From: an uncultured bacterium
GTDB lineage: Bacteria > Patescibacteriota > Dojkabacteria > J137
Assembly (NCBI GenBank): GCA_963700155.1
Contig: OY969472.1
Location: forward strand, 517,059 to 581,058
Direction of reading: 5' to 3'
DNA: 64,000 nucleotides
The position numbers were made by a program, and so were the translations under genes. Positions within the stretch are counted from its first letter, which is position 1. Each line of letters starts with the position of its first letter. The notes below the pieces were generated by a model. The model did no database searches and was not told the origin of the DNA. It saw only the letters and a list, made by a program, of their open reading frames with translations. This document shows positions 5,349 through 63,522 of the stretch, piece after piece.

Positions 5349-6563
5349 TTAAAAACTTAGCGTTGGGTCTCGATCGATTTGATCAAAATCTTTTAAATAA
5401 ATATTTTCTGAAGGATTATGTTTTATTTCTGAAATTTTTGAAAGCTTAACATTCGCAGCAACTGCAATCATAGCTGCATTATCTCCAGTCAATTTCTTTG
5501 AATATGGGAATCGCATTTTAATATTATTTTCTTTACAAATTACCCTAAATTCAGATCTCAATCTTGAACTAGCTATAACGCCGCCGCCAAGCCAAAGTTC
5601 TTTAGGTTGGTATTTCTGAATTGCTTTTCGAAGCTTGAACTTAAGCTGTTCAAGGGCGGCGGCTTCAAATACTACACACAAATCCATAATTTGTTCTTTT
5701 GTTAATCCGCCTTTTGATTTATCAGAATACAATCCTTCGATTTCTTCTTTGTGGCTTATAGTTTTGTTTAACAATTTCTCTACTAATTGCTTAAATGCTG
5801 TTTTTACTCCTGAATAACTGAAGTTTAAGTCACCAGATCTAATCATCGCTATCGGCAACATATATTCTGCTTTTGTATTTTTATTTGTACACTTTACTGA
5901 AGTACTTAGATTATCTTTAACAATTTCAATTTTCATATTTTTTCTTTGTCTTTTTGCAAATTCAGTAATAATCGGACCTGCAGGATATCCAAGTCCTAAA
6001 ATCCTTCCGCATTTATCATAAGCTTCTCCACATGAATCGTCTAAAGTTTCCCCTAGTTTTTCATATTCACCCCAGTTTTTTACAAGAATTAATTCAGTAT
6101 GGCTTCCAGAAACTAAAAAACCTAATGTTGGAAATTGCTGATCATTAACTTTGGTTTCAAAATCTAACTCTTTTAATTCTGATTTTCTCTCGGCGAAAGC
6201 TGAAAGAAGATGTCCTTCCATGTGATTTATTAAAATAAGTGGTTTATTATATTCAACACTCAAAGCTTTCGCCTTTTTAACTCCAATTTCTAAAGCTATT
6301 GCCAATCCTGGACCAATAGTTACTGCAACAGCATCAATATCCTTCATTTCTAAACCGGCTCTTTTCAAAGCTTCAATAACAACATTATCTATTCTTTCTG
6401 CATGTGCTAATCTTGCAAGATTAGGCACAACACCTCCATATTTTTTATGAAATTCCATTTGAGATGGCTGGACATTTGAAAGTACAGTAAAACCTCGGAC
6501 AACTGAAGCCGATGTTTCATCACAAGATGTATCTATTCCTAGTGTTAAAAAGTCTTTATGCAT
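5349..6563 (-). CDS. tsaD: tRNA N6-adenosine threonylcarbamoyltransferase TsaD (with about 65 aa of extra insertions)
   Basis: LGIDTSCDETSASV, GGVVPNLARLAHAE, INHMEGHL, LVSGSHTEL, GGGVIAS. I place the start at MHKDF (6563). The ORF-track start at 6599 would overlap the upstream gene by 20 nt. Confidence 0.9.
   Translation of the reverse strand: MHKDFLTLGIDTSCDETSASVVRGFTVLSNVQPSQMEFHKKYGGVVPNLARLAHAERIDNVVIEALKRAGLEMKDIDAVAVTIGPGLAIALEIGVKKAKALSVEYNKPLILINHMEGHLLSAFAERKSELKELDFETKVNDQQFPTLGFLVSGSHTELILVKNWGEYEKLGETLDDSCGEAYDKCGRILGLGYPAGPIITEFAKRQRKNMKIEIVKDNLSTSVKCTNKNTKAEYMLPIAMIRSGDLNFSYSGVKTAFKQLVEKLLNKTISHKEEIEGLYSDKSKGGLTKEQIMDLCVVFEAAALEQLKFKLRKAIQKYQPKELWLGGGVIASSRLRSEFRVICKENNIKMRFPYSKKLTGDNAAMIAVAANVKLSKISEIKHNPSENIYLKDFDQIDRDPTLSF
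5580..5663. repeat. 9-bp all-GC inverted repeat, 66-nt spacer, inside tsaD
   Basis: GCCGCCGCC (5580-5588) / GGCGGCGGC (5655-5663). Confidence 0.9.
6192..6273. repeat. 10-bp inverted repeat, 62-nt spacer, inside tsaD
   Basis: GGCGAAAGCT (6192-6201) / AGCTTTCGCC (6264-6273). Confidence 0.9.
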
Positions 6564-9641: not shown

Positions 9642-10338
9642 ATCCTTTTTGGAAGTACAAACTATTTAATCTATAACCGCTCTTAAAAACAGTTTCTATA
9701 AAATAACTCTCACTAGATTCACCTAATTTCTTTCTTAACCTGCTAATCAAAGTATCAACTGCACCATAAGAAACATCACTGTTGTTATAAAAAACTTTAC
9801 TTAAAATCTCATCCCTTGAATAAAGTCTTCCATTCGATTTTAAAAATAACAAAAGTAAATTGAATTCTAATTTCGTAAGATCTATCTGCAAGTCTTTTCT
9901 AAATACAACTTTTGAACACATATCAACTTTGAAATCTCCAACTTCAAATACTTCATTAAAGACTATATTTCTTGTTAGGGCTTTAATTTGAGCTTCGAGA
10001 AGTTTTAACTCAATTGGCTTTTTATGGAAAAGATTTGTTCCACACTCATAACTTTCAATTTCATATTCTAAACTATAATTTTCTGCTGTCATAATTGTTG
10101 GAGTTTCTATTCCTATATTTCTTATTCGTTGAAGTAAAGATAGGCCAGTTCCCTTATCAAGATCCATATCAATGATTATTAAGTCGAATTTTTCTCTATC
10201 AAGAATTCTTAGAGTATCAAGAGCTGAATATCTAACATCAACTTTGAAGTTTTTAAGATTTAAGAATTTCTTAAGCAGAAAAACTAATTTAATATCATCA
10301 TCTATTATTAAAATCTTTGCATTTTTTATTGATTTCAT
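9634..10338 (-). CDS. OmpR-family response regulator (receiver plus winged-helix); no adjacent histidine kinase
   Basis: ILIIDDD, DLIIIDMDL, C-terminal trans_reg_C-like ..VDTLISRLRKKL..ETVFKSGYRL. Confidence 0.8.
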   Translation of the reverse strand: MKSIKNAKILIIDDDIKLVFLLKKFLNLKNFKVDVRYSALDTLRILDREKFDLIIIDMDLDKGTGLSLLQRIRNIGIETPTIMTAENYSLEYEIESYECGTNLFHKKPIELKLLEAQIKALTRNIVFNEVFEVGDFKVDMCSKVVFRKDLQIDLTKLEFNLLLLFLKSNGRLYSRDEILSKVFYNNSDVSYGAVDTLISRLRKKLGESSESYFIETVFKSGYRLNSLYFQKGFN

Positions 10339-13201: not shown

Positions 13202-14431
13202 ATGTACAAAATTAATATGCGAAAAAAAATATTAATAAGCTTTATCTTTTTACAAGTTATTTTAATATTAGGCTCAGGTTTTGTAAGTGCTGATGATATT
13301 CAAAGCTTATCCACTCTTAATATTGACACTTCTATCACAGTAAAAGATACTACTGGTTTTGGAGATCCCACACAGATTATTGTTACTCCTGTTTTTATTA
13401 ATAATGGAACAGAAGTAAACACAGATAAATGGGTTAGAGGTATTTATTATTACACTATCGATAAATTAGGATTTCAAAACATTCCTTTTCATTATTTAAT
13501 TACAGAAGATGGTGGAGTTTTTAAAGGTAACAGCTCAGGTGATGAGAAAAAAATTAACATAGAAGGAATTGGCGATAATGCAGTTGTAGTTGGATATTTA
13601 AGTACAGATGAGGCGGGCGCTATAGCGCCCGCCTCAGAACAACCATTATCAAATCTGCTGCTAAATATAGCTAATCAAGATTCTATAAATCCTGAAAATA
13701 TATCAGCAAGTGGAATAAATTTTATTAAAGATAGTTCAAGCAATACAATAACAATTCAAAAAGCTAAAGTTGGGAGTGAGTGGAGTATAGGTATTAATAA
13801 AATTGTAAATAATATTAAAAATAAGTATTCTCCAATTACAAAAAAATATAGCGTTGAAATAACTCAGGTTACATTACCAACAAACGAAATAACACCTGGT
13901 GATGAAGCTACAGTCTCGATTAAAATAAAAAATACTGGTAAGAATGGATTTTATAGTGGTGCTAATTCTGAAATACTTTTAACAAAAGATAATGGAATTT
14001 CCAGCAACTTCTATATAAATAATACATGGCTCAGCCAAACTCAAACTGGAATAATGTCAGATGGTATATCTCTTCTCCCAGGTGAAGAAAAAGGGTTTGA
14101 TTTTAAAGTCAAAGCTCCACTGGCAACCGGAGATTATTCAGAAAACTTTATTTTGAAAACTGCAGGTGGAACTACTATAAAAAGTAACAAAAATATTGAG
14201 TTAAAAATTAAGTTAAAAAAAACTAATAAACAAATTATTGAGATAAAAACAAGCTATGATTATGTAAATGTAAGAAGCAAACCTTATGATTCAGCCCCTG
14301 TTTTAAGAAAAGTTACTGCAGGAGAAAGATATTTCCTTCTAGATCTAAATGAAGATACCCTTTGGGCAAAAATTGACTTAGGGGGTGGAGTAGAAGGTTA
14401 CCTTCCCGCTTGGGATTTGAAATATATTTAA
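13202..14431 (+). CDS. secreted cell-wall-associated protein: amidase_2/PGRP-like N-domain, Ig-like middle domain, C-terminal SH3b
   Basis: Signal/TM N-terminus. IPFHYLITEDGGVFKGN resembles amidase_2. C-terminal VNVRSKPYDSAPVLRKVTAGERYFLL..WAKI is SH3b-like. Confidence 0.5.
   Translation: MYKINMRKKILISFIFLQVILILGSGFVSADDIQSLSTLNIDTSITVKDTTGFGDPTQIIVTPVFINNGTEVNTDKWVRGIYYYTIDKLGFQNIPFHYLITEDGGVFKGNSSGDEKKINIEGIGDNAVVVGYLSTDEAGAIAPASEQPLSNLLLNIANQDSINPENISASGINFIKDSSSNTITIQKAKVGSEWSIGINKIVNNIKNKYSPITKKYSVEITQVTLPTNEITPGDEATVSIKIKNTGKNGFYSGANSEILLTKDNGISSNFYINNTWLSQTQTGIMSDGISLLPGEEKGFDFKVKAPLATGDYSENFILKTAGGTTIKSNKNIELKIKLKKTNKQIIEIKTSYDYVNVRSKPYDSAPVLRKVTAGERYFLLDLNEDTLWAKIDLGGGVEGYLPAWDLKYI
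13609..13636. repeat. 28-bp perfect GC-rich palindrome inside the amidase-like/SH3b gene
   Basis: TGAGGCGGGCGCTATAGCGCCCGCCTCA. Encodes ..DEAGAIAPASE.. Confidence 0.95.
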
Positions 14432-16670: not shown

Positions 16671-17582
16671 TTATCTAAAAATTAAGACTTGTCTAGCTCT
16701 AGCAGCAATTTGAAAGAGTTTATACCAAAAAGGTTCAATGATAAAATCGACTGTTTCTGCATAATTAATAACTCTCCCTCCAAAGCCAACTTTAAATCTT
16801 GAAAATCCATCATAAATTATCTCTCCACTTTCTGATTTACCAACTGATTTAATTCCCCATAAATCTAAACTTTTAAATCCATTTTGTTTTCCCCATTGGA
16901 TAATTTCCCAAACTAATGCATATGGAGCCATAACATTTTTAAATTCATCACTTGAACCTCCATATGGATAATAAATTACTTCTTCATATAAAAATAATAA
17001 CCAGGAGGCTAGTGGTTTTCCTTGAAAATATGCTGTAGCGATTGTTACAATTTTATCCGATTTTAAAGAATTCCATACTGTAGTTATATATTCTTTGCTT
17101 CGTCCATGGTAACCTTGACGAATAACAGTTGCTTCATAAAGTTTTAGGAATTCAGCAAAAGCATCTTCAGAGTCTGATATTTTAACTTCAACTCCTTTTT
17201 TGTGTGCTAAATTTAAGTTGTATCTATGCTTTTGCTTCATAGAGGCTAATAATTCTTCATCACTTATTGTTAAATTAATAGCTGTATTTTCTTGAAGATG
17301 AACTGGAATTCCTGATTTAAATTGATATTGAGAGGGAAGAGTTGCATTTTCAGAAATTAAATTTTCTGGGTCAATTGTTACATAAACACACTTAGCTTCT
17401 TTAGCTTTTCTATGCAGCTCTTCCCAATTTATCTTTGTTAAATCCGGACGTGGCATATATCCAACTGTTTTACCTATCAATGGTAGAGTAGTTGTTTGAA
17501 AAAAGTAACCTCCTACATCATAAACTTGATTTCCAAGACTCCTTTTACATTCCTTCCAGTATTTTGATTGTAAAAAATGCAT
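16671..17582 (-). CDS. FemAB-family peptidoglycan interpeptide-bridge aminoacyltransferase (FemX-like)
   Basis: MHFLQSKYWKECK.., YPYGGSSDEF, FSRFKVGFGG. Family-typical length. Confidence 0.8.
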   Translation of the reverse strand: MHFLQSKYWKECKRSLGNQVYDVGGYFFQTTTLPLIGKTVGYMPRPDLTKINWEELHRKAKEAKCVYVTIDPENLISENATLPSQYQFKSGIPVHLQENTAINLTISDEELLASMKQKHRYNLNLAHKKGVEVKISDSEDAFAEFLKLYEATVIRQGYHGRSKEYITTVWNSLKSDKIVTIATAYFQGKPLASWLLFLYEEVIYYPYGGSSDEFKNVMAPYALVWEIIQWGKQNGFKSLDLWGIKSVGKSESGEIIYDGFSRFKVGFGGRVINYAETVDFIIEPFWYKLFQIAARARQVLIFR

Positions 17583-17583
17583 A

Positions 17584-18666
17584 TTAATATCTATCCTTTC
17601 TATAACTCCAGAAATCTATAGCTCTATGTAGTAAATATCTTAAATTATCATTATAAATTTCCATTGGACCAACATAATTAATTTCCTTTCCACCAAAACT
17701 TCTCTTGAATTCAGAAACCCCATTCATAGGATTTTTTGCCTTCTTGTTTTCAGGTAAAGATTTAGGCAGAATTCCCCACATATTATATTTTCTGAAACCT
17801 TTTTCTTTAGCATATTTCATTATCTCCCACTGTAAAAAATATGGAGAGCGGAGCTTTGACATAGTTCTATCAGATGTAGAAGCTCCATGAGTATAATAAG
17901 CTGTTTCATTATAGTAATTAATCAAAGCTCCGCTAATATATTTGGCTCTATATCTTGCTAAGAATATATCCGTCATTCCTTTAGGATTCAATGCATCAAA
18001 CTGCTTTTTGAAATATTCAAAATCATAGTTTCCAAAACCTTTTCTTTGAGTAGTTTCATTCATCAAATCTGAAAAGGCTTTAACTTCTTCAATTGTAGTA
18101 GCTTTTACTAATTCTAGTTCACTTCTTGATGACCGATTTATATTATATCTGGTCGAATCGCTCATTTTCGAGCGCAACTCATCCTCATTTTGATCTAAAT
18201 CTAACTCCCAGACATCTTTAGCTTGAGCAGGGGCGAGGGATGTTTTAAAGCCTAAATTCTTTAAATTTTCACTATATTTTTTAGGGAGCAGTGGATCAAA
18301 TCTGAAAAGAGTAAGGAAATTTTGGAATATATAATCCTGCATAAAGTTTTTTAACTGTGTAAAAAAATCTGCAAATTCTTGTTCATTCATAGGATCACCA
18401 ACTATAACTGGTCCATATGGAACATAAGCATATTTTATAAATTTCCTTCTGTAAATTTCTATATATAAAATTCCTATTTCATATTCTCTGTCGCCAACTT
18501 CAAGGATAATAAAATATTGATCAATTTCTTTTCCTAATGATTTTTGAAAATCGATCCAATTAATTGAAGAAAGAAATGAAGAATTTTCTGCTTCTAAATT
18601 TATTTTTTCCCATATTTGTTTTTTATCTTCACTATATTTTTCAAATTTTAGTAGCACAGAAATCAA
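17584..18666 (-). CDS. FemAB-family aminoacyltransferase (second copy)
   Basis: SINWIDFQKSLGK, YYTHGASTS, VSEFKRSFGG. TTG start in the ORF track; the exact start is uncertain. Confidence 0.75.
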   Translation of the reverse strand: MISVLLKFEKYSEDKKQIWEKINLEAENSSFLSSINWIDFQKSLGKEIDQYFIILEVGDREYEIGILYIEIYRRKFIKYAYVPYGPVIVGDPMNEQEFADFFTQLKNFMQDYIFQNFLTLFRFDPLLPKKYSENLKNLGFKTSLAPAQAKDVWELDLDQNEDELRSKMSDSTRYNINRSSRSELELVKATTIEEVKAFSDLMNETTQRKGFGNYDFEYFKKQFDALNPKGMTDIFLARYRAKYISGALINYYNETAYYTHGASTSDRTMSKLRSPYFLQWEIMKYAKEKGFRKYNMWGILPKSLPENKKAKNPMNGVSEFKRSFGGKEINYVGPMEIYNDNLRYLLHRAIDFWSYRKDRY

Positions 18667-19396: not shown

Positions 19397-20542
19397 TTAA
19401 GCATCTCTTCTTAGAGGCATTAGAAGGTGAACAAATTTTGAATCATCTTTATCTTTAAAAACTGAAGCTGCCAATGGACCTTTAGTTTCAAAGATTATGG
19501 TGTCTCCTTTTATATGACTGACAACATCAGATATATATCGTAAATTGTAAGAAGCATTCAAATCACTTTCTCCATTTACAGAAGTCACTGGAATTAAAGT
19601 TTGATTTTCACCAACTTCAGCTACTACAGATTGCAACATAACAGTTGCGTTTTCTAGGTTGAGGTCAAAAAGTGTTTTGTATCCTAAATTACTTCTAGCA
19701 AAAGTATTAATGATCCTAATCGCAGATTCCAAATCTGACTTTTTGACCTCAAATGAATAGCTGAAAGAATCAGGCATTATCCTTTTATAATCAGGATAAG
19801 GTCCCTCTAATAATCTTATGCTGAATTCTATCTCTTCAAATTTAAAAATAACTTGGGATTTACTTTGACCTAAATAAACTTCAATACTATCAACATCAAC
19901 ATAATCTTGAATAATTTTAACCAATTCGCTTAAATATCTTGCCGGAACAATAACTTGTTCTGTTGGATATTCATTAACATCTTTTACTTTTGCACTACGC
20001 TTTGAAAGTCTAAAACCATCTAAACCAATAAAATTGATCTCACTTTTTTCTTTATCATATTCAAATAAAATTCCACTTTGCTGTATTTTTCCAGCTGATA
20101 AATCTGTTGATGAAGCAAAAATTACTTTATCCATTGATGCTAAAAATTCCTTTGCTGAAATTACAAACAGTGGAGTTTCTGAAACTTCTGGTAAAACAGG
20201 GAATTCGGTTGCCGGGATAGTAGTAAAATTAGCTTTTGAGTTTTCTGTTACAACATCTACTACATTATCATTCAAACTTAGTTCAACGTTATCTCCTACT
20301 GCTGCTGCAACAAAATCTGCAATGTATTTTGCTGATACAGTAACGCTTCCTTCTTGTTCAACTACTCCAGGTATCCACACATTTATCCCCATATCTAAGT
20401 TTGTTGCTGATAGTTTTAAACCATTCTTATTAACATCTAAAAGAACGTTTGAAAGTACTGGTATATTTGGTTTTAAACTAACAGCTCTACTTGTATATTG
20501 TAATGACTTTGAAAGGTTATCTCTGTTTAGTTTGATTTTCAT
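19397..20542 (-). CDS. dnaN: DNA polymerase III beta sliding clamp
   Basis: 381 aa. Typical start MKIKLNRDNLSKSLQYTSRAV..PVLSNVLL and C-terminal ..LMPLR. Confidence 0.9.
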   Translation of the reverse strand: MKIKLNRDNLSKSLQYTSRAVSLKPNIPVLSNVLLDVNKNGLKLSATNLDMGINVWIPGVVEQEGSVTVSAKYIADFVAAAVGDNVELSLNDNVVDVVTENSKANFTTIPATEFPVLPEVSETPLFVISAKEFLASMDKVIFASSTDLSAGKIQQSGILFEYDKEKSEINFIGLDGFRLSKRSAKVKDVNEYPTEQVIVPARYLSELVKIIQDYVDVDSIEVYLGQSKSQVIFKFEEIEFSIRLLEGPYPDYKRIMPDSFSYSFEVKKSDLESAIRIINTFARSNLGYKTLFDLNLENATVMLQSVVAEVGENQTLIPVTSVNGESDLNASYNLRYISDVVSHIKGDTIIFETKGPLAASVFKDKDDSKFVHLLMPLRRDA

Positions 20543-20651
20543 ATCTAAATATAATTTTTAATAAGTAGTTATTTTTAGTTATAGTGTCTGTTGATATGTG
20601 TATATGTTTTAATAATAGCTTATAGAACTTACATTTTCAATGATTTTGAGG

Positions 20652-20806
20652 TGTGAATAAGTGATGTGGATTAAAAATTAAGCATTTTCGTTGATCGTTA
20701 ATTAAGTATTTGATTATATCCAATTTTTATTGTGATGAGTTTTTGTAGAACTTTTGGGAAAGTTTTCTAGTATCCTATTTTGTTAAGATTTTTAGCGTGT
20801 GGAAAA
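20652..20806. promoter_or_regulatory. cluster of three one-mismatch DnaA-box-like 9-mers upstream of dnaN
   Basis: TGTGAATAA (20652-20660), TGTGGATTA (20665-20673), TGTGGAAAA (20798-20806). All are in the same orientation, each differs by one base from TGTGGATAA, and they sit in a 314-bp AT-rich intergenic region. Confidence 0.4.
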
Positions 20807-20856
20807 CTGAATAATATTACTGTACAAGAATTATATTAATATTCTATAATCCATAC

Positions 20857-21795
20857 ATGTTTAATCCTATAGACAATTTAAAATTAAAAGAAGTTGAAAA
20901 TTCAGAAAATAAAACTATTGGAGAAATTGCACAGAAACTTTCTAATTTAATGAGTAATAAATATTTTTTTTACTTTTTTTCTTCTCATTATCACTCTCCA
21001 CAATTAGATATTCATAGAGTTGATGACTTAAATTCTTTTTTATATAAATTTAAAGGTGTTTTTAGAGACATGAGTTCCTATCTTAAAAAGGATAAGGATT
21101 TTATAAATCTATTTCTTGAATTATTAAATTTTTTAGTTAAAGAAAAAGAATTTTATGAAGCTGTTAAATTACTAGATGAAACATTTGGATTTAATTTTCT
21201 ACACTATGAATGGATACAAGAAATTTATAAAAAAGCAATGGATTCTGAAGAGTATTTCCAAGCTTATTACATAATAAAATTAATTGAAAATAGAATTAAG
21301 TTGTTAATGATTACATTTCCAAATGATTCACCACAAGAACTTTTAGAAAAAGAGTATAGAGAATGTTTAGGAATTTTATTGAATAACTTTCTTGATGATA
21401 CTTCTGCAATAACTGAAAGTGAATTATTCGAAAAAACAAAAACATTACCGAAAATTTTAGCAATATTGAAGAATGATGAAATACTAGGTTTTAATATTTT
21501 GAAATCTCGAGACTATACTCCATATTTCATGGATATAATTTTATATGATTTTATTAAAAGAATTGTAGATTTAACTTGGACATTTAGAGGTGAAATATAT
21601 GATATACAATTTGATTCTGAAAATTTGCCTGACATATATTATCTTTATAATATTTCTACAAATACTAGTAAGTATCTTACATTACCAGAAAATAAAATGG
21701 TTCATATTTCACGAGTGGCTGAATATTTAGAACTAAAATTAAAAGATATTGAGTTCATTTTTATTGAAGATAAAAAGCAAGATGTGGAATCTTAA
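20857..21795 (+). CDS. hypothetical helical protein
   Basis: 312-aa ORF between dnaN and dnaA on the opposite strand. No motif recognised. Confidence 0.45.
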   Translation: MFNPIDNLKLKEVENSENKTIGEIAQKLSNLMSNKYFFYFFSSHYHSPQLDIHRVDDLNSFLYKFKGVFRDMSSYLKKDKDFINLFLELLNFLVKEKEFYEAVKLLDETFGFNFLHYEWIQEIYKKAMDSEEYFQAYYIIKLIENRIKLLMITFPNDSPQELLEKEYRECLGILLNNFLDDTSAITESELFEKTKTLPKILAILKNDEILGFNILKSRDYTPYFMDIILYDFIKRIVDLTWTFRGEIYDIQFDSENLPDIYYLYNISTNTSKYLTLPENKMVHISRVAEYLELKLKDIEFIFIEDKKQDVES

Positions 21796-21800
21796 ACTTA

Positions 21801-22523
21801 TTAATTTTCTAAACTACTATAATATGGTGTTTTTTCTAGTAATTCTGGAGGTAGAATAGATAATAAAGATAAATCATTATTAATTCTATAATCATATAGA
21901 TAAATATTATAGGAATCTGTATTCAAACCGTCTTTTCTGTATCGAATATATATATCAATGTGTGCAAGTTTTAAAGTTCCATCAAGATCAAGTTCTTCTG
22001 TAAAAATAAACTTAACTTGCTCAATATTTTCTTCATTGACTCCTATTTTGTAGTTATCAACAAAAAATTTTTTTACAGCTGGAGTAAATCTGGCTGAATA
22101 TTCTACGACCTTAAAGCCATGTATATTAGTATTATTCTTATCTATAAGCTCATGAATTTGGTTTAAAGTAGTAACATTAATAATAGCTGGCTCGAAAAAA
22201 ACTCCTTCTGTATCTGTTTGTTCAATAATTAATGATCCATTTTCGTCAAATTTAAAAACAGCTAGATTATTTCCAAAATAATACTCAAAATGAATATCAG
22301 AAATTGTTAAATCTGAATTCATCTCGCTCCTAGATAAATTTATTTCTCTATAAAGTATATTAAAAAGGGTATATTGAGTTGTCGGCAGTTTAAAAGATTT
22401 TCGAAAATCTACGCCTGACGAAGCTATTCCAGATAAAATACTTAAAATTAAATAAAGAGATAATATCCTTTTTAGAATAAAAGGACGGTTAAAATTGTTT
22501 TGAATATCATCAATTTTATCCAT
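21801..22523 (-). CDS. hypothetical membrane-anchored protein, likely co-transcribed with dnaA
   Basis: 240 aa with an N-terminal TM. Starts 5 nt after the dnaA stop. Confidence 0.45.
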   Translation of the reverse strand: MDKIDDIQNNFNRPFILKRILSLYLILSILSGIASSGVDFRKSFKLPTTQYTLFNILYREINLSRSEMNSDLTISDIHFEYYFGNNLAVFKFDENGSLIIEQTDTEGVFFEPAIINVTTLNQIHELIDKNNTNIHGFKVVEYSARFTPAVKKFFVDNYKIGVNEENIEQVKFIFTEELDLDGTLKLAHIDIYIRYRKDGLNTDSYNIYLYDYRINNDLSLLSILPPELLEKTPYYSSLEN

Positions 22524-22528
22524 TAAAT

Positions 22529-23938
22529 TTATTCTACATCCTCCGTTACAGCGGCATTATCTTGAATATTTGTTATTACTTGTGCAACTTGAGAATTAAA
22601 TCCATCCTGAATCATCATTTTGCTTTTAATCTTATCAAGTGCATGAAGCACAGTTGTATGATCAGTCCTTTTTAAATATTTTGCGACTTCTTCAAGTTTA
22701 TAACTAAATTCTTCTCTTAAGATATACATTGCAACTTGTCTTGCCAAAGCCAACTCCTTTGTTCTTCTCGGACCTTTTAAATCTTTTACAGTAACGCCAA
22801 ATGATTTAGCAACTTCTCTAATAACTTGAGGCACTTTAATCTGGGATCTTTTTGTTTGCGAATCTTTTCCAATTGTATGTGCAACTTCTTCTAATGTTAA
22901 ATCTCCATTCGGTTTCATTTGATTAAATAAAGCTACTTTTTGAAGTGCCCCTTCAAGCTCTCTTACATTATCCGAAATATTTCTAGCCAAGTACTCTAAA
23001 ATTGGCATTTTTAAATTATAGCCGGAGTTTTCAGATTTTCTGTATAAGATTGCAAGGCGAGTTTCATAATCCGGATTTGAAATATCAACTACCATCCCGC
23101 CTTGCATTCTAGTTCTTAATCTACTTTCCATATTTTGAATATCCTCAGGTCTTCTATCGGCAATTAAAATAATTTGTTTACCAGCATTATAAAGTTCATT
23201 GAAAGTATTGAAGAATTCTTCTTGAGTGTGAACCCATTTTGAAATAAGTTGCATATCATCAATAATAAGCATATCCGTTGGTCTATATTTAGCTCTAAAT
23301 TTCTCCATTTGCCCTGTTTTAATTCCTTTTACCATCTCATTCAAAAATCCTTCAGATGGTGTATAAATTATTTTTTTACTAGGATTCCTTTCTAAAATTG
23401 ATCTACCAATTGCTTGTGCCAAGTGTGTTTTCCCAACACCGGTTTTCCCATGAATAAATAAAGGATTGTATGATTGACCAGGTCTTTCAATAATTGCTAA
23501 AGCTGCAGCATGTGCAATTTTATTTGCATTTCCTACAATATAATTTGACATTGTATATTTAGGATTTAATCCGGATTTAGTAACAGCTTCAATTACATTA
23601 CCCATAAATCCATTCTCAACATCAAGTAAAGGTGAGGATGATATATTTTTTGGTTCATTTTCAGCTTCATCTTCTTTTTGTTCATGAGTAACTTCAAAAA
23701 CTGGATTTAAAACATCTCCATAAACATAACTAATTGTGTCTTTAATCATTTTTTCGTATCTATTTTTTATCCAATCAGAAATGAAGGGATTAGGTACTCC
23801 GATTATTGCTTTATTACCATCTATTTTAACTAATCTAGTTTCTTGAAAATATGTTTTAAATTGAGCAGGTGCGTCCAGTTTAATCTCTATTTGAGCTAGG
23901 GTCGTTTTCCAGAGCTGTTTTTCATCTCTAATTTTCAT
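22529..23938 (-). CDS. dnaA: chromosomal replication initiator DnaA
   Basis: GKTGVGKTHL, IIDDMQLIS, RLRTRMQGG, C-terminal KELALARQVAMYILRE..DHTTVLHA. I place the start at MKIRDEKQLW (23938); the ORF-track start is 23992. Confidence 0.95.
   Translation of the reverse strand: MKIRDEKQLWKTTLAQIEIKLDAPAQFKTYFQETRLVKIDGNKAIIGVPNPFISDWIKNRYEKMIKDTISYVYGDVLNPVFEVTHEQKEDEAENEPKNISSSPLLDVENGFMGNVIEAVTKSGLNPKYTMSNYIVGNANKIAHAAALAIIERPGQSYNPLFIHGKTGVGKTHLAQAIGRSILERNPSKKIIYTPSEGFLNEMVKGIKTGQMEKFRAKYRPTDMLIIDDMQLISKWVHTQEEFFNTFNELYNAGKQIILIADRRPEDIQNMESRLRTRMQGGMVVDISNPDYETRLAILYRKSENSGYNLKMPILEYLARNISDNVRELEGALQKVALFNQMKPNGDLTLEEVAHTIGKDSQTKRSQIKVPQVIREVAKSFGVTVKDLKGPRRTKELALARQVAMYILREEFSYKLEEVAKYLKRTDHTTVLHALDKIKSKMMIQDGFNSQVAQVITNIQDNAAVTEDVE
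23051..23106. repeat. 9-bp inverted repeat, 38-nt spacer, inside dnaA
   Basis: TGCAAGGCG (23051-23059) / CGCCTTGCA (23098-23106). Confidence 0.85.
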
Positions 23939-24022
23939 AGGTTTAAAGTAATGGTTAAAGAATATATACTTAAATGAAATAAGTATTTGCAAAAGCTATT
24001 TTTTTAGTGCTGAATTTTTTTA

Positions 24023-24052
24023 TTATACACAAAAAATTATCCACGTGGATAA
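24023..24052. promoter_or_regulatory. DnaA boxes in the dnaA-yidD intergenic region (candidate oriC or dnaA autoregulatory site)
   Basis: TTATACACA at 24023-24031 fits TTATNCACA. The 16-bp perfect palindrome TTATCCACGTGGATAA at 24037-24052 is two overlapping inverted boxes. Flanking sequence is A/T-rich. Confidence 0.6.
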
Positions 24053-24112
24053 CTTATAGTATTTTTTTGTATTAATCTTATTATTATAGACTGGTTTGTT
24101 ATATAATTATTT

Positions 24113-24349
24113 ATGTTTAAATCAATTGCAAAATTTTTAATAAAAACTTACCAGAAATTGTTTTCTTTCGATCACTCTTTTTGGGCGTCTTGGGTTGGAA
24201 TGCCTGTTTGCAGGTTTACACCAACATGCTCACAATATACTTATGAAGCTATTGATAAGTACGGGGTTTTTAAAGGAAGTTTTATTGGGTTTAAAAGAAT
24301 TTTAAGGTGTAATCCTTTTACAAAAGGCGGGTATGATCCGGTTCCTTAA
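24113..24349 (+). CDS. yidD: membrane protein insertion efficiency factor YidD
   Basis: [33 protein letters not shown]. Confidence 0.85.
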
Positions 24350-25783: not shown

Positions 25784-26422
25784 ATGTTACAAATTAATTA
25801 CCAAAAAAAAGTAGAGGAACTTCTTTCAACAGGAAAGAGGAAAAGTTATGCAGTCGCAGCTATTACGGTATTTTTCATTTTATTAATGGCTTTTGCAGGA
25901 ATCATTCCGGCTCTTAGTTCTTTAGGTTACCAGCATGAAGAAAATATAAAAAGAGATGCGATCATAACTAAGCTTCAAAATAAATTAGATATATTAAAAA
26001 GCTTTGTACAACAAAATAGTGACAAGAAAGATGTCATAAATTTTCTAAACGACATGTTCCCTGATAAATTTGCACAAAAAGATATAGTCGATAAAATCGT
26101 AGAATTGTCAGATAAAAATAGTGTAAACATTGTTTCGTTTGGTTTCCAAGATCCGCAACCTGGAGAACAGGATGAACTAGATGCACTAACAACAGGTAAC
26201 TCTAAAATATTAACAACTAGTATTACAGGTGATGGTACATTAGAAAATTTAGAATCATTTGTTAAAGATGTTGAAACTTCAAGAAGAATAATGAACATAA
26301 CTTCAGTTGTTATTTCAAAAAAAGCTGCAGATGAAGTTAATACGATTATAGACGGAAGAGATTTTAATTTAAGTTTAAGTATAGATTTTTATTATTATTC
26401 TACTACGCAAAGTAGTACTTAA
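25784..26422 (+). CDS. bitopic membrane protein with PilO-like topology
   Basis: One TM, a coiled-coil, then ..MFPDKFAQKDIVDKIVELSDKNSVNIVSF.., resembling PilO. Weak. Confidence 0.3.
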   Translation: MLQINYQKKVEELLSTGKRKSYAVAAITVFFILLMAFAGIIPALSSLGYQHEENIKRDAIITKLQNKLDILKSFVQQNSDKKDVINFLNDMFPDKFAQKDIVDKIVELSDKNSVNIVSFGFQDPQPGEQDELDALTTGNSKILTTSITGDGTLENLESFVKDVETSRRIMNITSVVISKKAADEVNTIIDGRDFNLSLSIDFYYYSTTQSST

Positions 26423-26809: not shown

Positions 26810-29023
26810 ATGGCAAGAAGAAAAAAACATATAACTTACGATAGTAAAGAAACACATACAATAGTCGGTTTAATCAGTTTTTTGCTTGGAATATTTTTTA
26901 TATTATCTCTAGTATCAGGGACAGAAAATACAAATAATTTATTTGCTCAGGCAAAAACTCTTTTTGGAGATTCTACAATAATAACTGCTCTATTTTTAAT
27001 TTCATTAGGATTGTCTTTTTTAGGGGTTGAATTACCATTCACAAAAAAAAGCAGTTTAATTTTTCAAGGTGGATTGATTTTTTTGATACCAGCTTTAATA
27101 ACATCACTCTCTTCAACACCAAGAGAATTAGTTAGAAGCGCTGATACTTTAGGTGGAATGGTAGGTTATTTTATTGTAAATACAGTACTTGGTGATACTA
27201 TACCTACTCAACCTGCGACTAAATTTATTCTACTTTCCTTAACTGTAATTTTTGTTCCACTAGCATTATCAATGTCAATAAGTGAATTGATTGACAAGAT
27301 AGCAATGTTTATAGGATGGCTTATTAATTTTATAAAATCAAACTCTGATGTTGAACAAGGAGAAGAAGAACCTAAAGCAACAAATTTTGGTGATTTCAAT
27401 AAATTGTTGAAAGAAAAGCAAATGTTGGAAGAGCAAAACAGGGAATTATTGAAAATGGATAAAAAACCTGAAGAAAAAATGCATCTTCCAGTAAGAGGAG
27501 AAGGCGCTAATATCTCTATCAAAGAAGGTGCAATTGGAGAAGATGGTTTAACACAGACAGCATTAAGATTTTCAAACTGGCAGCTTCCACCACTAAGCTT
27601 ATTGATTCCTTATAAAAAAAGTACAAATAAAGAGCCTGCAATTACTCAAAACGGACAAATTATAGAACAAATTTTATCTAGCTTTGGAATTGAAGCCAAA
27701 GTTGAAGATTCTTATGTAGGGCCATCTGTTATTCAATATGCGTTAAATATTCCACTAGGTGTAAAAGTTGAAAAAATTTCAAACTTAAGTGCAAATGTAG
27801 CACTAGCACTTGGAGTCGATTCGAAAGCAGTTCGAATCGACTCCATTCCAGGTACAACATATTTAGGTATTGAAGTTCCTAGAAGCAAAAGAGATATGGT
27901 AAGGATAAAAGAATTGATGGAATCACCACAGATGATGGATTCTAAAATGGAACTTCCTGCTCCTATAGGTAAAAATATTGATGGATCTGCAGTTATTACT
28001 GATATAAAAAAGATGCCTCATTTGCTTATTGCTGGAGCAACGGGCTCAGGAAAATCTGTTTTGACGAACTCTTTTATTGTTTCACTTTTACTTAAAAAAA
28101 CTCCTGATGAGGTAAGGCTTATTTTAGTTGATCCAAAGCAAGTTGAACTTTCAGACTATAATGGAATTCCACATTTATTAACTCCTGTTATTACAGACAT
28201 GGATCATGTTTTAAATGCTTTGAAATGGGCAGTAGGCGAAATGCAGAAAAGATATAATGTTCTTGCTAAAGAACAGGTAAGAAATATTGAAGGATACAAT
28301 CAAAAAAAAGGTTTTGCTTCAATGCCATATATTGTTATTGTAATTGATGAAATGGCTGATATGATGATGACTGCAAATAGAGTAGAGACTGAGACTGCAA
28401 TAGTAAGATTAGCTCAAAAAGCTAGAGCAGTAGGTATTCACTTAGTTCTCGCTACCCAAAGGCCTTCTGTAAATGTTATTACGGGTATTATTAAAGCTAA
28501 TATTCCAGGCAGAGTTGCTATGAGTGTAGCAAGTAGTACAGATTCAAGAGTTATTCTAGATAGAATTGGAGCAGAAAGCCTTCTTGGTTATGGAGATTTA
28601 TTGTACAAGGCTCCAGATAGTCCTAAGTCTATAAGGTTGCAAGGGTCTTTTGTTGACCAGCAGGAAGTTATCAGGGTTGTTGATTTCATTAAATCACAAG
28701 CTCCTGAGGTTGAATATGTAAATGAGATTATTGAGAAACAGGTGCAACCTGGAGAGGAAGCTATCGGCAATGGTGGTTTAAGTAGTATTTCTGAGGATAA
28801 TCTTCTTGAACAAGCGATTAGAATAGTTGTTCAAAATCAAAAAGGTTCCTCATCTTATTTGCAAAGAAGATTAAATATTGGATTTAATAGAGCAGCTAGA
28901 CTTCTTGAAGAACTTGAAGAGGCCGGGGTGGTTGGTCCTCCTAATGGTAGCAAGCCTAGAGAAGTTCTTGTTAGTGATGCTGATGCATTTATTGCAAGCT
29001 TAAAAAATACTTCACCTGAGTAA
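26810..29023 (+). CDS. ftsK: DNA translocase FtsK/SpoIIIE
   Basis: N-terminal TM segments, Walker A AGATGSGKS, Walker B VIVIDEMADMMM, ATQRPSV, C-terminal gamma wHTH SSSYLQRRLNIGFNRAARLLEELE. Confidence 0.92.
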   Translation: MARRKKHITYDSKETHTIVGLISFLLGIFFILSLVSGTENTNNLFAQAKTLFGDSTIITALFLISLGLSFLGVELPFTKKSSLIFQGGLIFLIPALITSLSSTPRELVRSADTLGGMVGYFIVNTVLGDTIPTQPATKFILLSLTVIFVPLALSMSISELIDKIAMFIGWLINFIKSNSDVEQGEEEPKATNFGDFNKLLKEKQMLEEQNRELLKMDKKPEEKMHLPVRGEGANISIKEGAIGEDGLTQTALRFSNWQLPPLSLLIPYKKSTNKEPAITQNGQIIEQILSSFGIEAKVEDSYVGPSVIQYALNIPLGVKVEKISNLSANVALALGVDSKAVRIDSIPGTTYLGIEVPRSKRDMVRIKELMESPQMMDSKMELPAPIGKNIDGSAVITDIKKMPHLLIAGATGSGKSVLTNSFIVSLLLKKTPDEVRLILVDPKQVELSDYNGIPHLLTPVITDMDHVLNALKWAVGEMQKRYNVLAKEQVRNIEGYNQKKGFASMPYIVIVIDEMADMMMTANRVETETAIVRLAQKARAVGIHLVLATQRPSVNVITGIIKANIPGRVAMSVASSTDSRVILDRIGAESLLGYGDLLYKAPDSPKSIRLQGSFVDQQEVIRVVDFIKSQAPEVEYVNEIIEKQVQPGEEAIGNGGLSSISEDNLLEQAIRIVVQNQKGSSSYLQRRLNIGFNRAARLLEELEEAGVVGPPNGSKPREVLVSDADAFIASLKNTSPE
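27811..27845. repeat. 15-bp perfect hairpin with a 5-nt loop, inside ftsK
   Basis: TGGAGTCGATTCGAA-AGCAG-TTCGAATCGACTCCA. Encodes LGVDSKAVRIDSI. Confidence 0.95.
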
Positions 29024-63502: not shown

Positions 63503-63522
63503 GTTACGTAAATTTACGTAAC
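63503..63522. promoter_or_regulatory. 20-bp perfect palindrome made of two TTACGTAA palindromic octamers 10 bp apart (candidate operator)
   Basis: GTTACGTAAATTTACGTAAC, in the intergenic region between trmD and the next ORF. Confidence 0.35.

Follow-up and report, generated by a model that had tools for sequence, protein, structure and literature searches.

The locus described here raises the question of whether a perfect palindrome upstream of the initiator gene dnaA marks the place where replication of the chromosome starts (oriC) or serves to control dnaA itself. The locus lies in a stretch of 64,000 nucleotides from an uncultured bacterium of the Dojkabacteria (assembly GCA_963700155.1, contig OY969472.1, positions 517,059 to 581,058), which is called the window in what follows and whose first nucleotide is position 1. 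Here dnaA (22529-23938, minus strand, ATG at 23938; 469 aa, Pfam DnaA_N, Bac_DnaA and Bac_DnaA_C) is transcribed away from yidD (24113-24349, plus strand; 78 aa, PF01809), and the two genes are separated by a divergent intergenic region of 174 bp (23939-24112; 80.5% A+T) that is predicted to hold the dnaA promoter and operator together with the yidD promoter. The initial annotation had proposed this spacer as oriC. Direct reading confirmed the sequence elements on which the proposal was built, namely TTATACACA at 24023-24031 on the plus strand and TTATCCACGTGGATAA, a perfect palindrome of 16 bp, at 24037-24052. The latter consists, as had been said, of two DnaA boxes that overlap head-to-head by 2 bp (TTATCCACG at 24037-24045 on the plus strand and at 24044-24052 on the minus strand), each of the two 9-mers matching TTATCCACA at 8 of 9 positions. 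The A/T runs that flank it are also present (T at 24015-24021, A at 24031-24036 and T at 24062-24068). The answer that we favour, with moderate confidence, is that the palindrome is a DnaA autoregulatory operator within the dnaA promoter, and that the origin lies in the same locus with its module most likely upstream of dnaN, at 20543-20856. The arrangement is ordinary in kind and only slightly unusual in geometry, a variation on well-known systems found in a lineage that is unstudied.

The palindrome within the probable dnaA promoter

DnaA boxes are enriched in the spacer: three with at most one mismatch occur within the 174 bp, whereas the density over the whole window, which amounts to 30 such boxes in 64 kb on both strands (21 expected from shuffles), predicts about 0.08. 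The exact 16-mer has an expectation of ~2e-5 from base composition. Perfect palindromes with arms of at least 8 are not rare in the window (5 found, 3.4 expected), and TTATCCACGTGGATAA is therefore regarded as non-random because its sequence is derived from DnaA boxes, not because perfect palindromes are scarce.

The conservation of the site was analysed in related genomes. A search of a genome collection with the DnaA protein yielded 11 loci whose DnaA is 66-73% identical, all of them from Candidatus Dojkabacteria, a member of the Candidate Phyla Radiation (CPR), or from mislabelled CPR metagenome-assembled genomes, and two of them on complete chromosomes (OZ246402.1 and AP024679.1). Scanning metagenomes for the 16-mer added at least three further relatives (L104, L150 and L169), so that 14 related loci were compared. 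What such a comparison gives directly are the sequences, their conservation, their position relative to promoter-like hexamers, the DNA-reading residues of DnaA and the statistics of compositional skew. The palindrome is kept upstream of dnaA in 13 of the 14 loci, the exception being L009, and half-sites that abut head-to-head are confined to these 13 dnaA promoters within the ~204 kb of Dojkabacteria DNA covered. In nine relatives it lies within a conserved block, CTTTACAAnTTATCCACGTGGATATATATT, whose majority-base identity is 0.88 vs 0.55 in either flank. This asymmetric, promoter-like block of ~31-40 nt is the sole conserved part of the DNA upstream of dnaA; an oriC architecture is not conserved there.

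The asymmetry of the block resides in its flanks, which offer a −35 hexamer TTTACA (5/6) and a −10 hexamer TATATT (5/6) separated by a spacer of 17-18 nt that the palindrome occupies. TTTACA-N17/18-TATATT is the best promoter-like match in eight loci, with a score of 9.5-10 of 12, and L003 carries TTTACA-N17-TATCCT. L150 has a third version, TTGACT-N18-TAATAT, whose spacer likewise holds the palindrome. Altogether, the palindrome sits between the −35 and −10 hexamers of a pair directed to dnaA in ten loci. The promoter-like element always points toward dnaA, at a distance from the ATG that varies between 67 and 149 nt. A subgroup of four loci (the window, L002, L104 and L169) has another arrangement, in which ACTATAAs, the palindrome, nine nucleotides and TATAAT follow one another; no recognisable −35 hexamer was found in this subgroup, where the palindrome covers the −35 position. 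The candidate −10 hexamer TATAAT of the window (24022-24027, minus strand) is separated from the palindrome by 9 nt and precedes the dnaA ATG by 83 nt. Taken together, the conservation points to a core promoter of dnaA that is overlapped by one or more DnaA boxes.

The same comparison changed the interpretation of TTATACACA, which is the reverse complement of TGTGTATAA and overlaps TATAAT. The element TGTATAAT is kept at the fixed 9-nt distance in the window, L002, L104 and L169, whereas the box-specific positions 8-9 are not kept; in L002 and L104 the 9-mer at the position of TTATACACA has 2-3 mismatches to the DnaA box and TGTATAAT is retained. Because these two relatives lose the match to the box yet keep TGTATAAT, the sequence that had been listed as a further DnaA box appears to be conserved solely as a −10 element. 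The palindrome itself, by contrast, is indeed built from DnaA boxes. In L002 it reads TTATCCACATGGATAA, so that the central symmetry is broken and a perfect TTATCCACA box replaces the left half, and L009, which is devoid of the palindrome, has only single boxes upstream of dnaA, two of them perfect. One of these single boxes apparently keeps the same register, by eye, inside a weak −35/N17/−10 pair. From the broken centre of L002 and the single boxes of L009 it follows that the common denominator is the DnaA box and not the symmetry. In addition, domain IV of the window's DnaA retains the residues with which the E. coli protein reads its box (R399, D433, H434, T435 and H439, within DHTTVLHA), P423 being replaced by E. 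By analogy with what is known of structure and function in E. coli, the cognate DnaA would recognise a box of the TTATCCACA type.

The mechanism that this organisation suggests is a simple one. DnaA would bind the TTATCCAC half-sites through the helix-turn-helix of domain IV. In most relatives the half-sites would fill the 17-18-bp spacer of a near-consensus −35/−10 pair, and in the window subgroup they would lie over the −35 position, with a perfect TATAAT 9 bp downstream and TTATACACA serving mainly as the −10 element. Bound DnaA would exclude RNA polymerase, so that transcription of dnaA would fall when free DnaA is high, resulting in negative autoregulation. Two inverted high-affinity half-sites within 16 bp would raise occupancy or permit a pair of DnaA molecules to bind, and the palindrome may additionally serve as the upstream sub-site of a split origin of the Bacillus type. 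That DnaA binds and represses here, where transcription starts and where the DNA unwinds are inferred from sequence, conservation and composition.

Autoregulation by DnaA at the dnaA promoter has been described in E. coli, B. subtilis, Vibrio harveyi, Streptomyces lividans and mycobacteria (PMC8203912). The Dojkabacteria arrangement resembles the box of E. coli dnaAp1/p2 in that one or more DnaA boxes of the TTATCCACA type lie in the dnaA promoter and the reading residues of domain IV are conserved. In contrast to E. coli, where a single box between two promoters is accompanied by sites for ATP-DnaA, two inverted boxes with a 2-bp overlap form here a palindrome of 14-16 bp in the −35/−10 spacer or at the −35 position. 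Replication control is essentially unstudied in the Candidate Phyla Radiation, whose genomes are tiny and contain few known regulators, and an operator conserved within the core promoter of dnaA points to simple autorepression as a main control of the amount of initiator in this lineage.

The element upstream of dnaN

A second cluster of DnaA boxes, absent from the initial annotation and as dense as that of the dnaA-yidD spacer, is located in the 314-bp intergenic region (20543-20856) upstream of dnaN (19397-20542, minus strand; 381 aa, three domains of Pfam DNA_pol3_beta). This region is the best oriC candidate of the locus. It holds five co-oriented DnaA-box-like 9-mers with at most two mismatches, all pointing to dnaN, vs about 0.7 expected on one strand. 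The box scan places a distal box, TTTTCCACA, at 20798-20806, and nearer to dnaN there is a tandem direct pair, TAATCCACA-tcac-TTATTCACA (20652-20673). The candidate dnaN promoter TTGAAA-N17-TATTAT (20612-20640) comes next, followed by a proximal pair of abutting boxes, ATATACACA/ATATCAACA (20589-20605), and by a GACA spacer (20585-20588) on the side of dnaN. The remaining DNA down to the dnaN ATG is the A/T tract CTATAACTAAAAATAACTACTTATTAAAAATTATATTTAGAT (20543-20584), a candidate region for DnaA-trios and for DNA unwinding. All these features are on the minus strand. The tract starts with CTA, the complement of 3′-GAT-5′, a first trinucleotide that 10 of 10 aligned loci share without change; the tract belongs to the 0.1% of 41-mers with the lowest stability, although not uniquely so. 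Three relatives (L007, L010 and L011) have TGTGGATAA and TGTGGAAAA farther upstream of dnaN.

Additional boxes were found inside the coding sequence. Codons 51-57 of dnaN contain GTATCCACA and TTATCCCCA (20371-20391, plus strand), which point back to the A/T tract. Codons 55-57 are xTG-TGG-ATA in nine loci, which preserves TGTGGATA at the DNA level: the isoleucine codon is ATA in 9 of 9 loci vs a background of 31%, and the window uses the rare GTG (5% usage). The pattern of synonymous codons thus indicates selection on the DNA sequence itself that has kept the intragenic boxes. On either side of the A/T tract there are thus boxes that point at it.

The organisation of the element is shared by the relatives. 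dnaN was located in the loci of ten relatives, and the alignment of the 160 nt preceding the ATG revealed one architecture in all ten; L150 has it as well, which makes 11 of the 11 loci with a dnaN start. The aligned order comprises a tandem co-oriented pair at about −134/−121, with a gap of 3-4 bp in 10 of 10 loci, a −10-like cctgTTATAAT at the position of the candidate dnaN promoter of the window, TTATaCACA and an abutting, weaker TATnnACA. The box pair is followed by a 3-4-nt spacer that contains G/C, by the invariant CTA and by DNA made only of A and T up to the dnaN start codon, so that the consensus of the proximal part reads TTATaCACA-TAT..ACA-..cc-CTA. A profile search detected exactly one copy of the module per locus, always abutting dnaN, and no copy in the 13.4 kb of L002, which lacks dnaN. 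Where dnaN lies 2-5 kb away from dnaA, whichever the side or strand, the module stays with it, and in L150 module and palindrome occupy one divergent spacer. According to the favoured reading, the module for DnaA assembly and unwinding would be 20543-20856, with the extra boxes at 20371-20391 inside dnaN, and its parts would be ordered as co-oriented boxes, abutting pair, 4-nt spacer, trinucleotides beginning with CTA and, up to the dnaN ATG, an A/T tract.

This order resembles the basal unwinding system of B. subtilis oriC, in which boxes 6/7, a GC-rich spacer, DnaA-trios and an A/T-rich element lie upstream of dnaN (PMC8287927, PMC10721633). In systems of this type the trio next to the box is 3′-GAT-5′ and the commonest published spacer measures 13 nt (PMC8287927, PMC10721633); the Dojkabacteria element has likewise a co-oriented box pair, a spacer with G/C, an invariant CTA and A/T-only DNA upstream of dnaN, and its stronger box is 12 nt from the trios vs the published mode of 13, box pair and spacing being invariant among the aligned loci. 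Unlike the B. subtilis system, the run of trios is short and imperfect, the window and L001 having CTA TAA CTA and thus fewer than three consecutive trios. The A/T tract reaches the dnaN start codon, the candidate dnaN promoter is inside the element and extra boxes are inside dnaN, which also differs from B. subtilis. The dnaN-linked element provides a concrete, testable origin for Dojkabacteria that could be used for the rotation of assemblies, for coverage-based estimates of growth rate, which require knowing where the origin is, and for the design of shuttle vectors. For genome scans, it implies that DnaA boxes beside dnaA are insufficient to call oriC, as operator and origin can be separate and drift apart.

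Fork divergence and the competing explanations

The coding strand does switch at about 24 kb as had been reported, with 17 minus and 8 plus genes to the left and 33 plus and 9 minus genes to the right (Fisher p=2.4e-4), and the minimum of the cumulative GC skew within the window falls at ~24-25 kb. Raw GC skew tracks the gene strand, and the strand-corrected skew at third codon positions (GC3 skew) was therefore used instead. It amounts to 0.20 for genes co-oriented with forks leaving ~17-25 kb and to 0.064 for the others. The change-point has the sign of an origin (permutation p=0.001 over all change-points) and fits best at 17-21 kb, 24 kb being slightly worse; it is too coarse to tell 20.7 kb from 24.0 kb. 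The locus thus probably contains an origin-type replication switch, somewhere at ~17-25 kb.

The relatives provide a further comparison, because some of the genes between the two elements would be leading only if forks start at the dnaN element. The pooled GC3 skew of these genes is +0.18±0.035, to be compared with +0.182±0.015 for unambiguous leading and −0.033±0.026 for lagging reference genes. The same contrast can be followed in a single gene: the skew of dnaA is 0.29±0.05 in three loci where it is leading under both models and 0.13±0.04 in the seven tandem loci where it would be lagging under a dnaN origin, a difference of 2.4 sigma in the direction predicted by the latter. In L001, an origin at dnaN would have 10 of the 13 genes co-oriented with it and an origin at dnaA 5 of the 13; a run of six genes lying between dnaA and dnaN agrees in orientation with the former and not with the latter. 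Four-fold sites of dnaA are too few for their skew to be informative, and the three genes between the elements of the window are split. Overall, the skew of the relatives is suggestive and modestly favours fork divergence at the dnaN element.

A number of observations weigh against the combination of an operator at dnaA and an origin at dnaN. Regarding the operator, scans for consensus promoters and terminators have no power in DNA with 70% A+T (26 promoter-like sites vs 26.1 expected), so that the promoter is called on conservation alone; the sign of regulation is uncertain in the window subgroup, where no −35 is recognisable and activation is possible; and distant lineages have the same palindrome inside origin-like box clusters (L076 and L102). 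Regarding the origin, the boxes upstream of dnaN also flank the candidate dnaN promoter and could therefore be purely regulatory. The skew comparisons use few loci, which are phylogenetically related, and the window's own dnaA is leading-like (GC3 skew 0.27). The change-point of gene orientation is best at 23.5-25 kb, with 20.5-21 kb nearly equal (50 vs 49 genes). Both regions carry an equally unstable A/T tract (top 0.1%), and about 20 other tracts of the window are comparable. Finally, the published unwinding rule (Pelliciari et al. 2021) asks for a box with at most two mismatches, an optional second box, a spacer of at most 16 nt and at least three consecutive trinucleotides with a central A (T on the box strand). 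The dnaN-proximal pair of the window fails this rule in its strict form (CTA TAA CTA), and the plus-strand box of the palindrome passes it (spacer 7; CTT ATA GTA TTT TTT, five NTN trinucleotides). At the dnaN element of most relatives at least three consecutive trios can be seen by eye, the window and L001 being exceptions.

Several of these points are those that speak for the spacer itself as oriC, where DnaA on the palindrome and TTATACACA would melt 24049-24089, the least stable 41-mer of the spacer, and the forks would diverge. The concentration of three near-perfect boxes in 174 bp, an A/T tract of the least stable 0.1% directly beside the palindrome, the trio rule, the orientation change-point with the skew minimum of the window, the leading-like dnaA and the occurrence of the palindrome in the origin-like clusters of distant bacteria are all in line with it. 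Yet we consider it unlikely. The relatives keep the promoter-like block and neither further boxes nor a conserved A/T element, the third box is conserved just as a −10 element, and two boxes that face each other cannot seed a single head-to-tail DnaA filament. The trio rule has little power because 125 of the 287 box-like 9-mers of the window (44%) pass it, and tracts as unstable as that of the spacer are found at some 20 other places. The between-gene GC3 skew, the same-gene control with dnaA and the gene orientation of L001 all favour the dnaN element. The initial proposal stands, therefore, as far as an origin-type switch at ~17-25 kb is concerned and not for the spacer, where only the promoter-like block is conserved; a multi-box module that moves with dnaN is found 3.4 kb to the left. 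A compromise between both locations would be a split origin of the Bacillus/Helicobacter type, with the palindrome as an obligatory upstream sub-origin that loops to the sub-origin upstream of dnaN, where unwinding takes place, and that doubles as dnaA operator. Bipartite origins are exemplified by incA/B and incC of B. subtilis and by oriC1 and oriC2 of Helicobacter pylori (PMC4285127, PMC3479198), and relatives of the tandem type have, similarly, predicted DnaA-binding DNA on both sides of dnaA. In five relatives the order is palindrome, dnaA, box cluster and dnaN, which matches the incA/B-dnaA-incC-dnaN order of B. subtilis (PMC4285127), and L009 and L150 have both elements in one divergent intergenic region. 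It is because of the Bacillus-like order in these five relatives that a split origin keeps a small probability. However, the upstream part is here a single palindrome instead of a box cluster, and its linkage to the dnaN element is conserved neither in spacing nor in orientation. Both elements persist although their distance is 3.4 kb in the window, with two extra open reading frames (ORFs) in between, 2-5 kb in L001, L003 and L006, where they lie on either side or on opposite strands, and more than 6 kb in L002. OZ246402.1 has dnaN at more than 6 kb from dnaA, and L009 lacks any palindrome.

Two further explanations concern the palindrome alone. Its symmetry and CACGTG core are reminiscent of parS, the binding site of ParB/Spo0J, which is also a 16-bp perfect palindrome with a CACGTG centre and proximal to the origin. 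The parS sequence is TGTTnCACGTGAAACA, identical to the palindrome at 11 of 16 positions, and DnaA boxes are normally asymmetric single sites, so that the operator of another dimeric protein, ParB or an unrelated transcription factor, might merely resemble DnaA boxes. This seems very improbable, given that the outer bases of the half-sites are those of the DnaA box, that the site is restricted to dnaA promoters in 204 kb of related DNA, that L002 loses the symmetry yet gains a perfect DnaA box and that L009 has single DnaA boxes instead. The ParB reading in particular was rejected: with up to 3 mismatches allowed, the window contains neither a match to the parS consensus nor a second copy of the palindrome, and it has no ParB signature motif in any frame. 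A DnaA-reactivating sequence (DARS), on which two head-to-head DnaA molecules would exchange ADP for ATP, was considered as well. The core of DARS1 and DARS2 in E. coli consists of the oppositely oriented boxes I and II and a third box co-oriented with II (PMC6868365), and the strand of dnaA in the window shows the same topology of box I, inverted box II, 5 bp and box III, the co-oriented third box being a feature of the window only. In E. coli, however, box I and box II have between them a 5-bp gap fitted to a dimer of domain III (PMC6868365), whereas the 9-mers of the palindrome share 2 bp. Relatives do not keep the third box as a box, and the fixed position inside a promoter would be left unexplained; DARS are not embedded in promoters. 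The analogy was rejected for its different geometry and the lack of conservation of the third box, and we regard reactivation at the palindrome as extremely improbable. DARS are known only from proteobacteria.

The palindromic geometry elsewhere and the neighbouring genes

The geometry of the palindrome is recurrent in nature. Among the metagenome matches listed for the 16-mer, 68 of 100 distinct contexts lie in long ORFs of unrelated, often GC-rich contigs and are for that reason taken as chance matches. The matches listed also include L076, a distant lineage with the palindrome in a clear DnaA-box cluster between dnaA and dnaN, the distant L102/L172, where it is found upstream of dnaA among TTTTCCACA boxes, and L171, where it forms 22-bp iterons beside a Rep-like gene. 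It is from these settings that recurrence is concluded. No precedent for palindromic or head-to-head DnaA boxes, for CPR origins or for the exact sequence was found in open-access literature text. The geometry raises a small structural question, namely whether two domain IV modules can be accommodated on overlapping inverted boxes. A bolder idea, to which we assign only a slim chance, is that the overlapping inverted boxes hold an obligatory head-to-head pair of DnaA molecules as a switch that is sensitive to the nucleotide state and couples dnaA transcription to the initiation cycle. Such a switch would be a compact DARS-like exchanger or an operator specific for an ATP-DnaA dimer, and it would substitute for controls of the datA/DARS/Hda type that reduced genomes may lack. 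In that case the recurrence in L076, L102 and L171 would point to a general, overlooked mode of DnaA binding.

Some related arrays and palindromes were observed along the way. L171, a metagenome contig with 35% GC, has at 380-780 a dense array of DnaA-box-like sites that includes four copies of the palindrome as 22-bp iterons (TTATCCACGTGGATATTGTTGA); the array adjoins an ORF of 369 aa with an HUH-type motif (HLHGLL) and may belong to a mobile replicon with DnaA-box-like iterons. L001 contains at 9720-9740 a spaced head-to-head pair, TTATCCACT-tca-CGTGGATAA, with a third box at 9811; the pair is intergenic, between two minus-strand genes and ~2.3 kb downstream of dnaA. In the Streptococcus-like gut-metagenome contigs L069, L091, L092 and L154 a 28-bp palindrome, AAAAACTTATCCACGTGGATAAGTTTTT (for instance at 8414-8441 of L092), occupies the spacer after ptsI, near ybaB and not beside dnaA.

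As for the genes around the two elements, dnaN and dnaA are separated in the window by ORFs of 312 aa (20857-21795, plus strand) and 240 aa (21801-22523, minus strand), for which Pfam returned no family match; in the relatives this position is taken by other small ORFs or by none. Tandem genes of the FemAB family adjoin dnaN (16671-18666, minus strand), and to the right of yidD there are a PilO-like gene (25784-26422, plus strand) and ftsK (26810-29023, plus strand). An Rfam search of 19.3-25.3 kb retrieved no known RNA, its sole match being a chance miRNA (E=0.95). The extended −10-like element of yidD, TGTTATATAAT (24097-24107), stops by eye 5 nt short of the ATG, and its equivalents in L002 (TGTTAAAAT) and L104 (TGCTAATAAT) are likewise 5-6 nt before the start codon. 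Because the element ends so close to the start codon, the sequence suggests that the yidD mRNA is perhaps leaderless. The window has other perfect palindromes with G/C. The longest of those noted, TGAGGCGGGCGCTATAGCGCCCGCCTCA, measures 28 bp (13609-13636) and is G+C at 20 of 28 positions in a genome with ~29% GC; it lies in frame within an ORF (13202-14431; ...DEAGAIAPASE...) whose product has an N-terminal hydrophobic segment. Further perfect palindromes with G/C content are GTTACGTAAATTTACGTAAC at 63503-63522 and CTAATCTTGCAAGATTAG at 6407-6424, and four palindromes of the window combine arms of 8 or more with 6 or more G/C, vs 0.48 expected.

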